Positions 11,684 to 51,323 of a stretch of 64,000 nt of DNA are shown in pieces. This DNA is from an uncultured Chloroflexia bacterium. GTDB lineage: Bacteria > Chloroflexota > Limnocylindria > Limnocylindrales > CSP1-4. Below the pieces are notes generated by a model. It was not told the DNA's origin, made no database searches, and saw nothing but the letters and a program-made list of their open reading frames with translations. Position 1 is the first letter of the stretch. Each line of letters begins with the position of its first letter. A program made the position numbers and the translations under genes. The DNA lies in the NCBI GenBank assembly GCA_963745295.1, contig CAVUWG010000007.1:258382-322381 (forward strand). Reading direction: 5' to 3'.

Positions 11684-12491
11684 ATGGCCGTTCGCGACAC
11701 GGTGACCGACGAGGCGTCCGCAAGCGAGGCCGACTCGCTCGCGCCGGCGGTGACCCGCGCCGCGCTCATCCTCGATGTCCTCGCGGAAGCGGGCGGCGAG
11801 CCGGTCGGCCCGAGCGAGCTGGCCCGCCGATTGGCACTGCCCAAGTCATCGATCGCCAACATCTGTGGCGCCCTGGCCGACGCCGGGCTGGTCCGTCGGA
11901 TCGGTACGGGGTTCGCGCTCGGTCGCCGGCTCGCCGAGCTCGGCGGCGCCTACCTGGTGACCGTGGACCAGGTCCAGGAGTTCTACGAGGCATCGCGCCT
12001 GCTGCCGACCGGCTCCGAGGAGACCGTCCAGTTCGCCGTGCTCGACGGTCTCGAGGTGACGTACCTCGCGCGCCACGACGGGCGCCAGCCCGTCCGACTG
12101 ACGTCCGGCATCGGTCGGCGCCTTCCGGCGTTTTCGACGGCGACCGGCAAGGCCGCCCTCGCCTCGCTCGACGACGCCGAATTGGGACGGCGGCTCGCCG
12201 GCCTGTCCGCCCTCCCCCAGGCCACGCCGCCGGGCGCACGCATCGGTCGAGGCGTTGCTCGCCGACCTGCACGACATCCGCCGTCGCGGGTACGCGATCG
12301 ACGACGAGGAGACCATGGAGGGGGTCGTCTGCTACGGCATCATGGTCCCGAGCCGCCAACCCGGCGAGGGACCGAACGCGGCGAGCATCACGCTCCTCAA
12401 GGTCCGCGCCACGCCCGAACGCGTGCCCGGACTGATCGAGGACCTCCACTGGCTGGCCGCCGAACTCTCCGACCCGCTGCAGCGCAGCTAG
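11684..12491 (+). pseudogene. IclR-family transcriptional regulator, reading frame broken once (about 12226-12236)
   Basis: N-terminal HTH and effector domain are in frame 11582+3n ('ALILDVLAEAGGEPVGPSELARRLALPKSSIANI...YLARHDGRQPVRLTSGIGRRLPAFSTATGKA'). The C-terminus 'LLADLHDIRRRGYAIDDEETMEGVVCYG...' is in frame 12255+3n. Deleting one nt in 'ccgccggg' restores 'ATPRAHASVEALLADL'. Confidence 0.7.
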
Positions 12492-29328: not shown

Positions 29329-29910
29329 TCAGCCCTCGCGCAGCTCCCAGTGGAACCGTTCGGCCTGCTCGGCGGGCGACTCGAGCTGGCTGTAGAGACC
29401 GCCGTGGTACAGGAGCGGCGGGGCGTCCTGCGGGTTGAGCCAGACCGACCGGATGAGCGCCACGAAGACCGTGTGCGAGTACGCCTCGTATGAGGTGTCG
29501 ACCTCGCACTCGAGATGGGCGAGCGACCCGCGCAACCGGGGCGTCGCGTCGGCGGTCGGGTCGGGCATGAGCCAGTCGCCGCGCAACCGCTTGTCGCCGC
29601 CCTGGCGGCTGCAGTGCAGCGCGATGGGGCGCTGCCCGATGGACAACAGGTTGACGCCCAGCCAGCGCGCCTCGGCGATCTCGCCGTGGGCACGCGCCTC
29701 CTTGTTGATGCACAGCAGCAGCGATGGCGGCGTGTCGGACAACGAGCACATCGAGGTCGCGGTCATCCCGCACGGCGCACCGGTGCCGTCGACGTAGGTC
29801 ACGACGACGACGGTCGCCGCATGGCGTCGAAACGCCTGGCGGAACAGTTCGGCGCCGGTCAGCGGATCGTCGTCGAGGCCGCGCGTCAGATCGTCGGGCA
29901 TGGCGCTCAT
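29329..29910 (-). CDS. NAD(P)H-flavin reductase component (HpaC-like)
   Basis: 'FRQAFRRHAATVVVVTY...GMTATSMCSLSDTPPSLLLCINK...HTVFVALI' is a flavin_reduct domain. ATGA overlap with the HpaB-like stop. Confidence 0.85.
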   Translation of the reverse strand: MSAMPDDLTRGLDDDPLTGAELFRQAFRRHAATVVVVTYVDGTGAPCGMTATSMCSLSDTPPSLLLCINKEARAHGEIAEARWLGVNLLSIGQRPIALHCSRQGGDKRLRGDWLMPDPTADATPRLRGSLAHLECEVDTSYEAYSHTVFVALIRSVWLNPQDAPPLLYHGGLYSQLESPAEQAERFHWELREG

Positions 29911-31346
29911 GATTCCCCGATGCCTTCCAGGCTTCGCCGGACATGCGCCCGGCCGGTCTCCCAGTCGTAGGCACGGAACACGCGCAGGTCGGCGATGTGT
30001 TGTGCGGTCGAGTAGAACATCTCGTACTGCAACTGTCGACCACCGAACTCCGTGCCGACCAGGTCCCACAGCAGCCGCAGGAGGCCGGACGCGGTCGCGG
30101 GCCGGCAGCGTCGCGGACCGGAAGTAGCGCTGGACGTCCTCGGCCGTCTCGGGCGATTCGAAGCTCTCGGCCGACGGGAGGGCGATGAACCCGCCGCCCC
30201 CGAGCTCACGGAGCGCGCGCATCAGGTCGACGATCCAGCGGCGCTGCAGGCTCATGGCCGGGTAGATGAACCGTGGCGCCGGCAGGGCCAGATCGCCCCG
30301 CAGCTCCGGGCGGAGCTCCGCGCCGAGGACGAGCGCGTCGAGCGCGGAGCAGAAGGCCGCGATCTCGCCACCCATCTGGGCCTGGACCGGCGTGATCGCC
30401 GAGATCCCGTGGGCGTCGGCGAGTTCGATCGCGAGACCCGACGCGAACTCCATCTTGACGAGGAAGCGCACGAGCGCCTGGTAGTTCGCCAGCAGGTGCG
30501 CCCCGGTCTCGTGGAACTGGGCGCTGACGAGCCCGGGATCGCGATGGACGAAGACGTGCTCCCAGGGGATCGAGCACGTCGTCGAGCACGATGAGGCTGT
30601 CGGACTCGTCGAAGCGCGAGGTCAGCGGGTAGTCGAACGTGCTCGTCGTGGGCGAGGCGTACGGACGTCGCGGGTAGATGCGCAGGCCGGCCGCGTCGAG
30701 CGGCATCACGACCGAGATCGCGTAGTCCTCGTCGCCCGGCTGCAGGGGCACGATCGAGCTCAGGAAGAGCCAGTCGGCGATGGCCGCCGACGTGCCGATC
30801 ATCTGCGCCCCGCGGATGACGATGCCGTCGTCGCGCTCCTCGACGATCCCGGGATACAGGAACGGCTCGGGCTGGAGATGGGCGGGCTTCGAGCGATCGA
30901 CCTGGGGCGGCGTGATCGCGTAGGCGATGAACCAGTCCGCCGCGCGCGCCCGCTCGTAGAAGGCGATGACGTTGTCGCCGTATCGGGCTGCCGGCCCGGT
31001 CGAAGACCTGGCGCATCCCCGCGAAGCCCGTGATGAGCGACGCGACGTGGTCAGGCGTCCGACCCATCAGCCCGAAGCTGCCCTCTGCCCAGTGGCGATG
31101 GACGCGCCGCCGGGCCGCGAGGTCCTCGGCCGATCTCGGGATGAGCCACATCGCGCTCGATGTGCGCCCGCCGTCCTCGTGGGCGAGGTCGGGGCGTTCG
31201 AGTGCGCTGTCGTACAGCGAGGCGATGACGCGTGCCGGGCCGGCGAAGCCCGGGTGCGTGCTGACGTCGGCGACCGGCTCGCCGTCGAGCAGCACGGTCC
31301 GCCCATCCCCGGCGATGGCCGAGAGGTAGTCCGCTCCGCGCCGCAT
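29907..31346 (-). pseudogene. 4-hydroxyphenylacetate 3-monooxygenase-family oxygenase component (HpaB-like), broken by three frameshifts
   Basis: Homology runs through 4 segments in 3 frames. Segment 1 is 'MRRGADYLSAIAGDGRTVLLDGEPVADVSTHPGF...GMRQVFDRAG' (31346 to about 30990). Segment 2 is 'YGDNVIAFYERARAADWFIAYAITPPQVDRSK...IRGAQMIGTSAAIADW...SLIVLDDVL' (to about 30577). Segment 3 is 'PWEHVFVHRDPGLVSAQFHETGAHLLANYQALVRFLVKMEFASGLA...DVQRYFRS' (to about 30090). Segment 4 is 'LLRLLWDLVGTEFGGRQLQYEMFY...GIGES*'. Confidence 0.8.
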
Positions 31347-35773: not shown

Positions 35774-36748
35774 TCAGCGTACGACCTCGTCCAACGCGCT
35801 CATCGCCCGGTCCCACGCGGACGCCAGGCCCCCGAGCGCCTCGCTCGGGTCGAACGGCCGCCGCCGCGCGAGCTTGAAGCCCAGGAGCTTCGAGCCGTCC
35901 ACGATCTCCGCCATCGCCGCCGACGCCGGCGCACCCGCTTCGCCCAGCAGCCAGTCGACGTGGGCGGCGCAGAGCTCGAACCCGGCCCCCGCCATCCGGA
36001 CCGTCGCGAAGGCGTACGCGTGGTAGTCGGACTCGTCGCCGTCGAGGAGCACCGGCAGGTCGATCGCGAGCTGCCCGCCGAAGCGCCCGAACGGGTTCCC
36101 TGGCGCGACCCGGTCCAGGTGGTAGCGCAGCCGTTCTCGCGCCGCAGCCTTGAGGCCGTCGCCCTCCAGCCGAGGCCCGACGTCGAAGCGGACCAACTCC
36201 GTGTACGGCGGCAGCACATCGTCCGTGAGCATCGTGGCCTGGCGGAAGACGCCGCGGTAGTCCTCGCCCTCGAGCTCGTACAGCGACGCGTTGTGGAAGT
36301 AGCGGAGCCGCTCCTCGTCGGGGTCGATCGCCTCGACCGCGACCGAGGTCTTCACGTGTTCGCGGCGATAGCTCGTGGCCGCGGTGTCGGGCAGGTACCA
36401 GGCGTCCAGCTCGACCGTCAGGGTCCGGCCCTCGCGGATGAGCTCCGAGATCTGGACCGGCAACGGCCGGTACGGCTGCATCTCGTGGATGTCGACGCCG
36501 AAGAGCAGCTCCATGTCGGCCGGGTGAGGCTTGAAGAACGTCCACTGGTCACCCTCGAAGTCGAGGCGGACCGTGGAGCCCAGCGCCGCGAGCGGCTCGT
36601 CGCCGCGAGCATGGAGCAGCTCGATGAGGATGTCCGTGTAGCAGTTGGTCTCGTGGTACGTCTGCCCACCGGCGTGGAGCGGGTGGGGCTGGTAGGTCGC
36701 CGGATCGTGGCCGAACAGGCTGACGAGACCGGCGGTCGAGGTGCTCAT
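35774..36748 (-). CDS. DUF1839-like protein (possible BtrH-like carrier-protein-dependent acyl/aminoacyl transferase). In the literal sequence it is read through from the ligase ORF.
   Basis: 'MSTSTAGLVSLFGHDPATYQPHPLHAGGQTYHETNCYTDILIELLHARG...FEGDQWTFFKP...LDAWYLPDT' about 324 aa. The family call is from memory of DUF1839 proteins that neighbour aa:CP ligases. It needs HMM confirmation. Confidence 0.6.
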   Translation of the reverse strand: MSTSTAGLVSLFGHDPATYQPHPLHAGGQTYHETNCYTDILIELLHARGDEPLAALGSTVRLDFEGDQWTFFKPHPADMELLFGVDIHEMQPYRPLPVQISELIREGRTLTVELDAWYLPDTAATSYRREHVKTSVAVEAIDPDEERLRYFHNASLYELEGEDYRGVFRQATMLTDDVLPPYTELVRFDVGPRLEGDGLKAAARERLRYHLDRVAPGNPFGRFGGQLAIDLPVLLDGDESDYHAYAFATVRMAGAGFELCAAHVDWLLGEAGAPASAAMAEIVDGSKLLGFKLARRRPFDPSEALGGLASAWDRAMSALDEVVR

Positions 36749-37679
36749 CCCCAGAGCTGCCCGGCGGACCTCGGCCGGCCACGACTCGACATCGAGGCCA
36801 TGGGTCCGCAGCAGGGCAAGCACGATCCGCTCGTGACCGAACCCGAGACATGCCGTGTGGACCTCGCCGCCGTCGGTCGTTGTCAGGCCATGCATCGTCG
36901 CGAAGTGGCTCTGGTGGTAGTTGAACGAGGCCACCGCCGTAGGCGCGGGCCCGGCGATCTGCACGAGGATCTCGAACTTCAGCGCCTGTTCGCGCTGGCT
37001 GGCCGCGAGCATCCGGCCGCTGCGTCCGAAGAACGGGTCTGCCGCGACGTCGTAGGCGGCGGCGAGGCCCAGCCCCCGCAGGAGATCAAGCCCGCGCTGC
37101 AGCCACTCGTCGCGCCAGGCCGAGACCGTCTCCGGCTCGCCCATCCGGATCAGCTCGCGCATGTGGAACATCTGGAGCCGGGCCGGGTCGTCCGACGGCT
37201 CGTGCCGGAAGACGTACGAGCCGCCCGGATCGATCGTGACGCCGCCGGGCGGGAGCGGACCGCGCGCGGCGATCGCGGGGTAGATCGGGTAGCAGGCGGC
37301 CGGCACGAGGACCAGCTCGGTCATGCGCTGGTGTTCGCTCCAGTCCTCGTGGCGCGACGCGCGCTCGTACTGCTCGAGGGCCTGCGCCTCGGTCCCCTCG
37401 AAGCCGAAGATCGCGCCGGCCAGGTGCGGGAAGGACTTGAGGTAGCCGCTGGTCTCGAACTGGCCGCGCGGGAGCACGCGGCGGGAAGCGGATCGGCTCG
37501 GCGTTCTGGTCGGCCGAGCAGCGCGTCGACAAGCTCGTCGAAGCGCAGGCGGATGTCCTCGAAGACGCGGCCGCGCCCATAGACGCCCGAGGTGCCGGTC
37601 CGGATGAGCAGGCCGTGCTCGAACAGTTCGCGCGAGGAAGGCAGATCTGGTCGGCGGTGGCCGGCTGGAACTCGGCCAC
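36745..37679 (-). pseudogene. Amino acid:[carrier-protein] ligase (tRNA-independent truncated SerRS-like class II synthetase). There are three frameshifts in the first 70 codons plus loss of the stop codon.
   Basis: AAGGAGG-N5-GTG start at 37679. Core in frame 37477: 'VLPRGQFETSGYLKSFPHLAG', zinc-site 'PAACYP', motif 2 'YVFRHEPS', 'ASFNYHQSHF' and motif 3 'TACLGFGHERIVLALL'. The N-terminal pieces 'VAEFQPATADQICL', 'SRELFEHGLLIRTGTSGVYGRGRVFEDIRLRFDELVDALL' and 'ADQNAEPIRFPP' lie in alternating frames. Removing one G/C at 36760-36762 gives 'VRRQLWG*' with an ATGA overlap onto the next gene. Confidence 0.75.
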
Positions 37680-38855
37680 CTAGACCTCCTTGGCGATGAG
37701 CAGCAGGCTCGCGTTGGTCTGGTGGATGCGCTCGTTGGCGACCATCAGCGATGCCGACATCGTGTCGCGCAGGTGACGACCGATGCTGAAGGGCGTGTCG
37801 TTCTTGTAGCCGACGATGCCGCACACCGACATCGCGCCCTGGCAGACGCGGGGCGCCTGCTCGGAGGCCGCGATCTTGAGGTTGTTGAAGCGCAGGATCG
37901 TGGACATCATCGAGAGGCGTTCCCGGCCGGGGCTCTCAGAGGCCTCGGTGAACTCGCGCAGCGCCGAGTGGACCTCGGCCCGCAGCAGCGAGAGCTCGCT
38001 CATGAGATGCGAGAGGCGCAGCGCGGTCGGCGGCACCTGGTCCGGTCGCTGCTTCGCCGAGGCCCGCACGAAGGCGCGGGCACGGTCGAACGCGTCGGTG
38101 GCGATGCCGAGCCAGATGTGCGACCAGAGGAGGTGCGAGACCGGGACCATCGATTCGGTCGCGACCACCGGGAAGGGGGTCGGGAGGACCTGGCCGGCGT
38201 CGAACTCGGCGCGGACCACGTACCCGGGCGAGCAGGTGCCGCGCATCCCGAGCGGGTCCCATGTGCCGGTCTGCTCGAGCGTGACCTGGTCCTTGTTGGT
38301 GAGCGCGACGACCTGGTCGCCCGGCTCGGCATCGGGGGTCCGCCGGAGCGTGGTGAGCAGGTCGTCGGCATAGGCGCCGTACGAGACGGTCGGTGCCTGC
38401 TTCTCGAACGTGGCGCGGCCGTCGCTCCCCGGCGTGACCGCCGCGATCGATCGACCCAGGTCGCCACCGGTGCCGACTTCGGACGTGACGGACGCGACGA
38501 GCCGCTGCTCGCTCGCGACGTCCCGGAGCCAGGCCTCGAACCACGGCGCCCCGTCGAGGTGCCGCACCACGCAGGCGATCTGGATCTGGTGCATCGCGAA
38601 GACCATGGCGGTCGCGCCGCAGCGACGGCCGAGCTCGAAGCACGCGGCCGCGATCGCCTCGAACGAGACGCCGCCGCCGTCGAACTCCTCGGGGATGAGG
38701 GCCGAGAGCGCGCGCTCCTCACGCAGCGCGGCGATGGCCTCGACCGGGAATCGTGCCTGCTTGTCGACGTCGTCGGCGTTGGGCGCCGCGACCTCCTCGG
38801 CGATCCGGCGGATCGCGGCGAGGAACGCCTGGTCGCGATCGATGGCGACGCTCAT
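37680..38855 (-). CDS. Acyl-CoA dehydrogenase-family flavoenzyme (likely acts on a carrier-protein-bound substrate)
   Basis: 391 aa with the ACAD three-domain pattern ('ATAMVFAMHQIQ', 'VTSEVGTGGDLG', 'WDPLGMRGTCS', 'CGIVGYKNDTPFSIGRHLRDTMSASLMVANERI'). ATGA overlap with the ACP stop. Its stop abuts the ligase GTG. Confidence 0.9.
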   Translation of the reverse strand: MSVAIDRDQAFLAAIRRIAEEVAAPNADDVDKQARFPVEAIAALREERALSALIPEEFDGGGVSFEAIAAACFELGRRCGATAMVFAMHQIQIACVVRHLDGAPWFEAWLRDVASEQRLVASVTSEVGTGGDLGRSIAAVTPGSDGRATFEKQAPTVSYGAYADDLLTTLRRTPDAEPGDQVVALTNKDQVTLEQTGTWDPLGMRGTCSPGYVVRAEFDAGQVLPTPFPVVATESMVPVSHLLWSHIWLGIATDAFDRARAFVRASAKQRPDQVPPTALRLSHLMSELSLLRAEVHSALREFTEASESPGRERLSMMSTILRFNNLKIAASEQAPRVCQGAMSVCGIVGYKNDTPFSIGRHLRDTMSASLMVANERIHQTNASLLLIAKEV

Positions 38856-39097
38856 GCCGCCTGCGCGCCCAACGACTGGAGCGCCTCCGTGATCGAGGCG
38901 ACGCTCTGGAAGACGCTCCGCTTGAGCATCGCGTCCGGGAACTCCACGTCGAACGCGGCCTCCAGCGCGAGCATCAGGTTGACGCTCGCGTGTGAGGTCA
39001 TGCCGGCCTGGTACAGGTCCGCGTCGTCAGGCAGTCCCTGGACGTCGACGGGCAGGCGGCCGTGTTCCTTGATGATCTGTCGAACCTGGTCGCTCAC
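38852..39097 (-). CDS. Dedicated acyl/aminoacyl carrier protein
   Basis: 81 aa: 'VSDQVRQIIKEHGRLPVDVQGLPDDADLYQAGMTSHASVNLMLALEAAFDVEFPDAMLKR'. This is a four-helix ACP pattern with the Ser in 'GMTSHA' at the phosphopantetheine position. GTG 39097 was chosen; in-frame ATG 39205 is an alternative. Confidence 0.75.
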   Translation of the reverse strand: MSDQVRQIIKEHGRLPVDVQGLPDDADLYQAGMTSHASVNLMLALEAAFDVEFPDAMLKRSVFQSVASITEALQSLGAQAA

Positions 39098-39392: not shown

Positions 39393-39797
39393 ATGCCGAT
39401 CCGGGTCGGTCTCGATCTCGTGGCCGTGATGAGCGTCGAGGAGTCGCTGCGCGCCGCGCATGGCGAGCGCTATCTCGAGCGCCTCTTCACCGAGCGCGAG
39501 GTCGCGGACTGTCGGACGGCGGCGGGCGTCGACCCGGAGCGGCTGGCGGCAAGGTTCGCCGCAAAGGAGGCGACGCTCAAGGTCCTGCCGGCCGCCGATG
39601 AGGGTGTGTCCTGGCAGGAGATCGAGGTGCGACGCGAGCCATCCGGGCGGGTCCATCTCGAATTGCGCGGTCGTGCCGCGCAGCTTGCCGCGGAGGCCAA
39701 GATCATCGACCTTGCCCTGAGCCTCACGCACGAGGGCGGGTTCGCGGCGGCCGTGGTCGTCGCCGAGGTCCGTCACGAGGCGAGCCGCGAGTCCTAG
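39393..39797 (+). CDS. acpS: Holo-[acyl-carrier-protein] synthase (AcpS-type 4'-phosphopantetheinyl transferase)
   Basis: 'IRVGLDLVAV...RLFTEREVADC......RFAAKEATLKVL......WQEIEV......LSLTHEGGFAAAVVVA' is the AcpS family pattern. Divergent from the carrier-protein operon. Confidence 0.85.
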   Translation: MPIRVGLDLVAVMSVEESLRAAHGERYLERLFTEREVADCRTAAGVDPERLAARFAAKEATLKVLPAADEGVSWQEIEVRREPSGRVHLELRGRAAQLAAEAKIIDLALSLTHEGGFAAAVVVAEVRHEASRES

Positions 39798-41562: not shown

Positions 41563-42491
41563 CCAGCGGGCTTCCGGGCCCGCGGCTTCGGGGTGGCCGC
41601 GCGGGGCTTCGGGGCAGCGGTCGCCCGCGGCTTCGGGGCGGCGGCTGCGCGCGGCTTCCGAGCGGTGGATGCTCGTCGTCGTGGAGCGGCGGCGGCCTTG
41701 GCGGCCGCGGCGGCTTCGGCGCGCAGACGAGCCGAGTAGATGTCGAGGGCCTTCCTGGTCTTGGTGTTCTGCTCGCCCGAGGTCTTGACGCCATGCCGCA
41801 GGAGCGATGCCCGGGCTTCGACGGCCGTCTGGAACGTCTGGGATGGCAGGCACTTCGTCGACAGCTCGAGCATGGCCGTGCCGTCGGGGTACAGCCAGAA
41901 CTCGGCGACCATCGGACGGCCGAACCGCTCGGGCGTGAACTTGGTCTTGAGCACGAAGATCGGCCCGAGGACCGAGAGGTCATCCAATGCGATCCCCTCG
42001 GGCGCGTGTGCCGCGTAGAACGCCCGCTGCGCCTTCGAGAAGAGCTTGCGGATGGGCCGGGCCTTGGCCACCACGGGCCGGACGTCGTCCTTGCCCAGCG
42101 CCGCGCTCAACGATGCCGAGCAGACGTACTTGCCGCCCGGCATCGCGTCCACCTCGACCTTGAAGCCGGGGGTCTGACGGAACGCGGGCGTGAGCTCCTC
42201 GGGCCGGATCGGCCGGAGCTTGACCGTCGAATCGTCACCTCGACCCTGGACGCGACGAGCGCGGACCACGACGCCGCTCTTGCTGAGCTTGAGGTCCGGC
42301 GTGTCGAAGAAGAACACCTGTCGGATCTGCGACCCCAGCGGATCGAGACCCAGCGCGTTGATCGTCGCCCGCCGGTCGGCATCCGCGACCGAGAGCTTGA
42401 GCTCCACGCTGTCGGACCCGCGGACGAGCTCCATCAGGTCTGTGAGTTGCTCGTCCGTCATGCGCAGACGGCTGGCTTCCGCGATCGCCAT
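41559..42491 (-). CDS. CYTH-like (triphosphate-tunnel) domain protein with Ala/Pro/Lys/Arg-rich histone-like C-terminal tail, embedded between sufB and sufD
   Basis: gaggagggga RBS lies before ATG 42491. Alternating charged beta-strands: 'SVELKLSV', 'VVVRARRV', 'STVKLRP', 'FKVEVDA', 'MLELSTK'. Tail is 'AAAKAAAAPRRRASTARKPRAAAAPKPRATAAPKPRAATPKPRARKPAG'. The fold assignment is tentative. Confidence 0.55.
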   Translation of the reverse strand: MAIAEASRLRMTDEQLTDLMELVRGSDSVELKLSVADADRRATINALGLDPLGSQIRQVFFFDTPDLKLSKSGVVVRARRVQGRGDDSTVKLRPIRPEELTPAFRQTPGFKVEVDAMPGGKYVCSASLSAALGKDDVRPVVAKARPIRKLFSKAQRAFYAAHAPEGIALDDLSVLGPIFVLKTKFTPERFGRPMVAEFWLYPDGTAMLELSTKCLPSQTFQTAVEARASLLRHGVKTSGEQNTKTRKALDIYSARLRAEAAAAAKAAAAPRRRASTARKPRAAAAPKPRATAAPKPRAATPKPRARKPAG

Positions 42492-50455: not shown

Positions 50456-51323
50456 ATGACCGCGCAGACGACCGCTCTCGTGGACTGGCTCAGCACCAAC
50501 GGCGTCGTGCTGGCCGTCGTCGCCATCGTGCTGCTCCTCGTCTACCGCTGGGCACGGCCGGCGATCCACCGGGTCCTGGTCAGCGTGATGCACGCTCAGG
50601 CGGTCAGCCTCGGTGAGGGCGTCGACCGTCACGAGCGAGATCGACCGCCGGGTCGCAACGATCGAGGACCTGCTGGCGAAGGTGCTCCGATTCGGCGTCG
50701 TGGCGACCCTGATCGTCGTCATCCTCGGCATCTTCGATCTCTGGTCGGTCCTTACCGGCCTCGGGCTGCTGCTCGCGGCGATCACCCTCGCCGGCCAGAG
50801 CATCGTCCTCGACTACCTGATGGGGTTCCTCATCCTCGTCGAAGGCCAGTACTTCAAGGGCGACGTCGTCCGCGTCGGGGCCGTCGAGGGGACCGTCGAG
50901 GAGGTCGGACTCCGCCGGACCCTGCTCCGCGACCCGCGCGGAGTCCTCCACTCGATCTCGAACGGCGAGATCCGGTCGTCCTCGAACCTGACCCGCACCT
51001 ACGCCGTCGCGATGATCAACATCGACGGCATCGCCGACACCGACATCGAACGCGCCATGGGCGTGATGGACATCGTCGGCGCGGAGCTGGCAACGGATAC
51101 CACCTGGACGGCGCAGGTCCTGGAACCGCCTGGCCCGTCGACCATCGTCCGGCTGCAGGCAGGCGGGGCGACCTTGCGGCTCGGCATCCGCGTCCGCCCG
51201 GAGGCACGGCTGGCGGTCGAAGCCGACCTGCGCCGGAGGGTCGCCGCTGGGCTCGCGGGGGCTGGCATCGAGCCGATCCGACCGTCCGTGCCCGCGGGCG
51301 TCGCAGGGACCCGGGTCCCGTGA
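50456..51323 (+). pseudogene. MscS-family mechanosensitive channel, single frameshift after TM1 (about 50610-50625)
   Basis: TM1 'GVVLAVVAIVLLLVY' is in frame 50447+3n. The remainder ('RRVATIEDLLAKVLRFGVVATLIVVILGIF...LAGQSIVLDYLMGFLILVEGQYFKGDVVRVGAVEGTVEEVGLRRTLLRDPRGVLHSISNGEI') is in frame 50613+3n. Confidence 0.7.

Follow-up and report, generated by a model that had tools for sequence, protein, structure and literature searches.

Does a gene that changes reading frame repeatedly and then runs without a stop into its downstream neighbor represent a decaying enzyme, a novel fusion or a fault in the deposited sequence? The question is raised by an operon in a 64,000-nucleotide stretch of DNA (hereafter the window) from a metagenome-assembled genome (MAG; assembly GCA_963745295.1, referred to below as G000) of an uncultured Chloroflexia bacterium. 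[quoted passage not shown] According to the accounts cited here, aa:CP ligases resemble the class II enzyme SerRS but no longer possess a tRNA-binding domain; the amino acid that they attach to the phosphopantetheine arm of a carrier protein is Gly or Ala, with Ser also named (Mocibob et al., 2010, 2013; PMC9437257). An earlier, sequence-only reading of the window concluded that the ligase was either inactivated or locally misrepresented by the consensus, and that the fusion could also be genuine. On comparative and statistical evidence, we consider it highly probable that all five disruptions stem from single bases wrongly inserted into the consensus of a metagenome assembled from long reads, and reflect neither decay nor fusion.

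The ligase gene as printed

The start of the gene is as first proposed, with an AAGGAGG motif (37691-37685), a 5-nt spacer and a GTG codon at 37679, which abuts the TAG stop (37682-37680) of the acyl-CoA dehydrogenase (ACAD)-like gene. Three-frame translation of the minus strand from 37700 to 35701 recovered all the peptides quoted by the sequence-only reading and reproduced the frame hops that it had described: VAEFQPATADQICL and ADQNAEPIRFPP share one frame, with SSRELFEHGLLIRTGTSGVYGRGRVFEDIRLRFDELV between them in a second frame and VLPRGQFETSGYLKSFPHL after them in a third. The literal read-through into the next protein was also reproduced, the third frame continuing as WPAEVRRAALGMSTSTAG within a 567-aa open reading frame (ORF; 37477..35774). 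In tblastn, the pieces of the ligase show 91-94% identity with an intact ortholog, a match far beyond chance. The first 240 residues of the 567-aa ORF cover approximately positions 76-314 of the 318-position ligase model NF005479 with 332-335 bits, below the cut-off of 357 bits, and residues 259-563 make up the full DUF1839 domain.

Five extra bases, site by site

Syntenic loci of relatives were reached by protein search with the 567-aa ORF. The references for the nucleotide alignment were L012 (ENA), L053 and L010 (JGI), and L054 and L055 (Logan contigs from separate SRA runs), which are 86-94% identical to the window in the ligase region; L010 is the closest relative and served to place the junction base. 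Compared with these intact orthologs, the window has five additional bases, precisely one per site, and is otherwise free of indels over 935 nt. The comparison with orthologous loci speaks for the suspicion of a locally wrong consensus, since every one of the five +1 bases is absent from the five independent assemblies of relatives (four full-length ones at sites 2 and 3). The frame hops reported earlier are therefore borne out, but they amount to five single-base insertions instead of four disruptions.

The region given for the first shift (37632-37645) was correct; the alignment resolves it into two +1 insertions about 14 nt apart rather than a single shift. The first one (37645..37646) reads CAG-A[T]-CTG on the minus strand, brackets marking the extra base or the bases among which it lies here and below. 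Relatives have CAA-ACT, CAA-TCT or CAG-GCT, so that the first base of the codon is A, T or G in relatives and A and T stand side by side in the window. The second (37630..37632) is found in CTCGCG[C]GAA, where four of four full-length relatives have one base fewer; between the two extra bases, four codons (TAFL) sit in the third frame. For the second shift, formerly placed at 37510-37518, the alignment puts the extra base 10-18 nt upstream, at 37528 (GT[C]GAC, against GGT-GACG in all four relatives), and the true protein around this hop reads DELVTRCSADQNAEP. The third shift had been located near 37478-37485, in agreement with the extra base at 37478..37479 (CCGCC[GC]GTG). At that site, relatives show either CCGCC-G or CCGCC-C, a third-position polymorphism of a Pro codon (CCG or CCC), and the window reads CCGC.

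The fifth extra base (36757..36759, G[CAG]CTC) is the one that produces the apparent fusion. As anticipated, removal of one nucleotide restores an ATGA overlap (36748-36745). The CCC run at 36760-36762 had been proposed as the place of the error, but alignment to L010 selects the G at 36757 (GCA[G]CTC), whose deletion yields '...VRRALWG*' followed by the overlap. L010 reads GCA-CTC, the other four relatives GAG-CTC, and the window GCAGCTC. The apparent fusion arises because this +1 insertion, like any other placed shortly ahead of an ATGA overlap, takes the ligase stop out of frame and brings the ligase into register with DUF1839.

At three of the five sites (37645, 37479 and 36759), the window hence carries adjacently two alleles that are found singly among relatives (GCA and GAG giving GCAG at the last of them). 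A second allele was sought among the aligned relatives for 37630-32 and 37528 and none was found; these two would be doublets of a third-position G or C. Homopolymers are mostly absent from the context of the extra bases. Methylation-linked basecalling errors at palindromes (AGATCT, GTCGAC, AGCT) were considered and set aside; the sites share no common motif.

An intact ligase by conceptual read-through

Removal of the five extra bases gives a 309-aa ligase that has the length of its orthologs, is 94.5% identical to that of L012 and contains no in-frame stop; the best 120 ligase homologs are all 308-314 aa long. On NF005479 (PRK07080), this conceptual protein scores 409.8 bits over positions 13-317 of 318, above the 357-bit cut-off, and it is only by such a five-base read-through that a full-length match is obtained, the literal ORF remaining below the cut-off. 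Residues 7-306 align with residues 31-329 of the Bradyrhizobium japonicum Bll0957 chain (PDB 4h2w/3mey; E 1.8e-80), whereas only positions 305-505 of the 527-aa type-2 SerRS 3w3s and positions 356-503 of the 518-position PRK00960 model are matched. The predicted protein thus has a SerRS-like class II catalytic core and no tRNA-binding domain, as does Bll0957 (3mey, 4h2w).

The selection acting on this coding sequence is equally ordinary. By the Nei-Gojobori method, dN/dS is 0.08-0.12 between the read-through and four intact orthologs and 0.06-0.11 among those orthologs, which shows that the sequence is under normal purifying selection with no relaxation. Marks of a pseudogene (relaxed selection, stop codons, deletions) were sought in the read-through and none was found. 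We are confident that an unremarkable and complete gene of 309 codons for an amino acid--[acyl-carrier-protein] ligase underlies the printed sequence.

Frame switches across the source genome

G000 is a 3.3-Mb MAG in seven contigs with 82.6% marker completeness. Its frames were called with a seven-state Viterbi HMM whose codon usage was trained on the genome's own long, high-GC3 ORFs, and same-strand switches were counted if no stop codon of the previous frame lay close to them. This HMM is our own method, calibrated on about 400 kb of control sequence only; its minimum piece is 150 nt, it missed the hops of the ligase and mislabelled 37478-37680 as plus-strand, and the 499 switches it called in G000 (15 per 100 kb) are a lower bound. 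The direction of these switches is strongly biased, 436 of the 499 (87%) being net +1 and 63 net -1 (binomial p ~1e-69). Clustering is likewise apparent, 85 gaps between switches being shorter than 500 nt versus 36 expected.

Other genomes of the same genus were scored by the same method and model. The rate in G000 is at least ten times that of the fragmented assemblies G006 (170 contigs, 93% complete, 0.9 switches per 100 kb) and G022 (180 contigs, 93%, 0.0 per 100 kb) and of the four-contig assembly G023 (92%, 1.0 per 100 kb). Together, the insertion bias and the raised rate, some 15-fold or more above these clean assemblies, are a technical signature and not a mutational one. High rates were also obtained for G001 (20 contigs, 75%, 12 per 100 kb), G010 (20 contigs, 95%, 12 per 100 kb), G011 (8 contigs, 59%, 32 per 100 kb) and G012 (10 contigs, 60%, 40 per 100 kb). 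Among the six few-contig assemblies, G000 included, the two least complete, G011 and G012, have the highest switch rates, G010 being an exception. Low completeness scores may be due in part to marker genes that are broken, and not to DNA that is absent. In the window, the HMM also flags stop-less switches on the plus strand at 12244 and at 50624, the latter immediately before an MscS-type channel domain (PF00924, 50625-51317).

The ligase is not the only broken gene of its syntenic block. About 6 kb away, an HpaB-like oxygenase gene (29913..31346, minus strand) is recovered by tblastn as four pieces of 79-100% identity in three frames, and its alignment to L011 and L012 reveals three single extra bases in the window (~30990, ~30570 and ~30084); the downstream flavin reductase gene (29332-29913, PF01613) is intact. 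All eight lesions resolved in the window are accordingly +1. The loci L011 and L012 (ENA ERZ25039511 and ERZ25039485), assembled from different samples, are 99.8% identical, with seven single-base indels between them over 13 kb. The broken gene is always in the copy with the extra base (SufD in L012, ACPS and ACAD in L011), and therefore the same type of error occurs in other public MAGs of the group. In the noisy assembly G001, the ligase ortholog hops between frames as well, at other positions, which argues that the breaks are not inherited.

Consensus error or gene decay

The locus shares several features with known errors of long-read (nanopore-type) assemblies: few contigs yet low marker completeness, hundreds of locally clustered frame breaks in conserved genes, and relatives and near-identical assemblies that lack the breaks. 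It departs from them in that most of the lesions here are +1 insertions outside homopolymers, and in that three of the five ligase sites resemble two strain alleles written in tandem. Nanopore errors are usually described as homopolymer deletions. Most likely, the errors would arise where reads of co-occurring strains differ by one base and the consensus writes both alleles one after the other, and the reads of the source sample would then be expected to lack the insertions. The operon was found in 2 of 25 same-genus genomes (G000-G024, G000 included); it is thus accessory DNA, for which strain heterogeneity is plausible, and such heterogeneity could account for the local clustering of the errors.

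Several observations stand against consensus error. Five lesions in 935 nt compare with approximately 0.14 expected at the lower-bound rate given by the HMM. The window shows no damage in the flanking ACAD, ACP, DUF1839 and GH2 genes, which would require the errors to be highly localized. At 37630-32 and 37528, the second allele that the mechanism postulates is seen in no aligned relative. The same contrast between a damaged ligase and intact operon neighbors is what would be expected of a true pseudogene, in a strain that really possesses some or all of the five insertions, where inactivation of the ligase would also disable the carrier-protein pathway, and the loss of an accessory operon would be tolerable. 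Such decay, however, would have required five independent +1 insertions, yet neither an in-frame stop nor a deletion accompanies them and dN/dS is as low as in intact genes. The decay of bacterial genes is biased toward deletions and is not known to favor +1 insertions. Moreover, the +1 signature recurs about 440 times across G000 and is absent from clean relatives. Of the two outcomes envisaged at first, consensus error is therefore favored by the +1 excess and the intact relatives, inactivation is opposed by the dN/dS values, and we regard a true pseudogene as unlikely.

Direct evidence was looked for in other assemblies. A contig of the same strain was sought for comparison and none was found, the closest references being 92-94% identical in DNA. 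Two scans of metagenome contigs for exact patterns of the window, in which the extra bases could be present or absent (sites 3 and 4 together; site 5), returned 0 matches, and they also missed L010.

With consensus error as the preferred reading, the main value of this case is one of caution. In a genome that carries hundreds of +1 artefacts, apparent pseudogenes, fusions and recoding sites should not be taken at face value without inspection of the reads.

The apparent ligase-DUF1839 fusion

The DUF1839 gene encodes a 324-aa protein with a full-length profile match (PF08893, E 1.6e-92, positions 2-312 of 313) and is 97% identical to a stand-alone 324-aa protein (P0002). For DUF1839, a papain-like fold containing a C(T/S)H triad is predicted; the family is without an experimentally tested function (PMC10318531). 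The gene tables of L010, L011, L012, L054 and L055 record a 4-nt overlap between the ligase and DUF1839 genes, and a stop followed by an ATGA or GTGA overlap is kept in five relatives, one of which has a 97% identical DUF1839. Most probably, then, DUF1839 is a separate gene translationally coupled to the ligase through the ATGA overlap.

The junction insertion (~36757) could nevertheless be real in a sub-lineage that co-occurs with the assembled strain, where it would produce either a genuine fusion or a true loss of the ligase; we hold this to be quite improbable, more so than a pseudogene. A genuine fusion in the strain itself, with one polypeptide made across a real insertion, is less probable again. 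In its favor, the literal sequence is open across the junction (VRRAALGMSTST) and four database proteins of 507-701 aa cover both domains. All four, however, bear scars, in the form of out-of-frame stretches rich in Arg, Gly and Pro or of missing termini: P0001 has lost the ligase C-terminus, P0003 both ligase residues 1-117 and the DUF1839 C-terminus, and P0005 both inner ends, while P0010 shows repeated frame hops. The best 120 database hits to the 567-aa ORF comprise 115 stand-alone DUF1839 proteins shorter than 340 aa and only those four of at least 500 aa; a clean full-length fusion was sought among these 120 hits and none was found. No fused form occurs among the best 120 ligase homologs, the five relatives retain the ligase stop and the overlap, and the literal fused ORF would miss approximately the first 66 residues of the ligase. 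The suggestion that the fusion could be genuine hence finds no support among these hits, and the DUF1839 family is not characterized by the fusion that the window displays. In all likelihood, neither the broken frame nor the fusion is a real biological feature.

Restoration of the frame during translation, by programmed ribosomal frameshifting or another form of recoding, is supported only in so far as the frames can be joined into one protein, and we reject it as having a negligible probability because five separate events would be needed on each mRNA at sites that share no common slippery motif, when orthologs encode the same protein in a single frame.

A carrier-protein cassette

Stripped of its presumed artefacts, the locus is a cassette predicted to encode a holo-ACP synthase, a carrier protein, an ACAD-like flavoenzyme, an aa:CP ligase and DUF1839. 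Upstream of the ligase on the minus strand, the intact ACAD-like gene (37680..38855; 391 aa; Pfam Acyl-CoA_dh_N and Acyl-CoA_dh_1) encodes a protein 91% identical to its L012 ortholog over the full length. It is preceded by the gene of an 81-aa carrier protein (38852..39097), the presumed substrate of the ligase, which matches NF005480 with 107 bits versus a 72-bit cut-off and is 94% identical to the L012 ACP. The holo-ACP synthase (phosphopantetheinyl transferase) gene lies on the plus strand (39393..39797), divergent from the operon, and matches PF01648 as well as several holo-ACP synthase models of NCBIfam. The ligase therefore has genes for a dedicated carrier protein and a phosphopantetheinyl transferase nearby, and in this respect the locus resembles Bll0957-type systems; the host of Bll0957 is a rhizobium, whereas the present ligase belongs to a soil Chloroflexota-like MAG.

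In L011 and L012, the gene order is SufB, SufD, a Rieske protein, the divergent ACPS, ACP, the ACAD-like protein, the 309-aa ligase and the 324-aa DUF1839 (with ATGA), followed by a GH2-like protein, a hydrolase, HpaB and a flavin reductase. Domain assignments are observed and the flow of the pathway is deduced from them. The ligase would aminoacylate the ACP, the ACAD-like enzyme would modify the tethered amino acid, and DUF1839 would transfer or release the product. The cassette may thus represent an uncharacterised carrier-protein pathway in which the papain-like DUF1839 acts as an aminoacyl-S-carrier-protein transferase or hydrolase. The tight overlap of the ligase and DUF1839 genes in many soil lineages provides a reasonable lead to the function of DUF1839.

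The best named database hits belong to Solirubrobacteraceae (Actinomycetota) and Limnocylindria, at 70-75% identity. The patchy distribution of the cassette suggests accessory DNA, possibly acquired by horizontal transfer. Farther upstream in the window, a well-formed ORF of about 268 aa (MAIAEASRLRMTDEQLTDL...; 41688-42491, minus strand) with no Pfam match is located between SufB and SufD and is absent from the syntenic loci L011 and L012; the HMM flags a stop-less frame switch at 41685, where this ORF meets the SufD frame.
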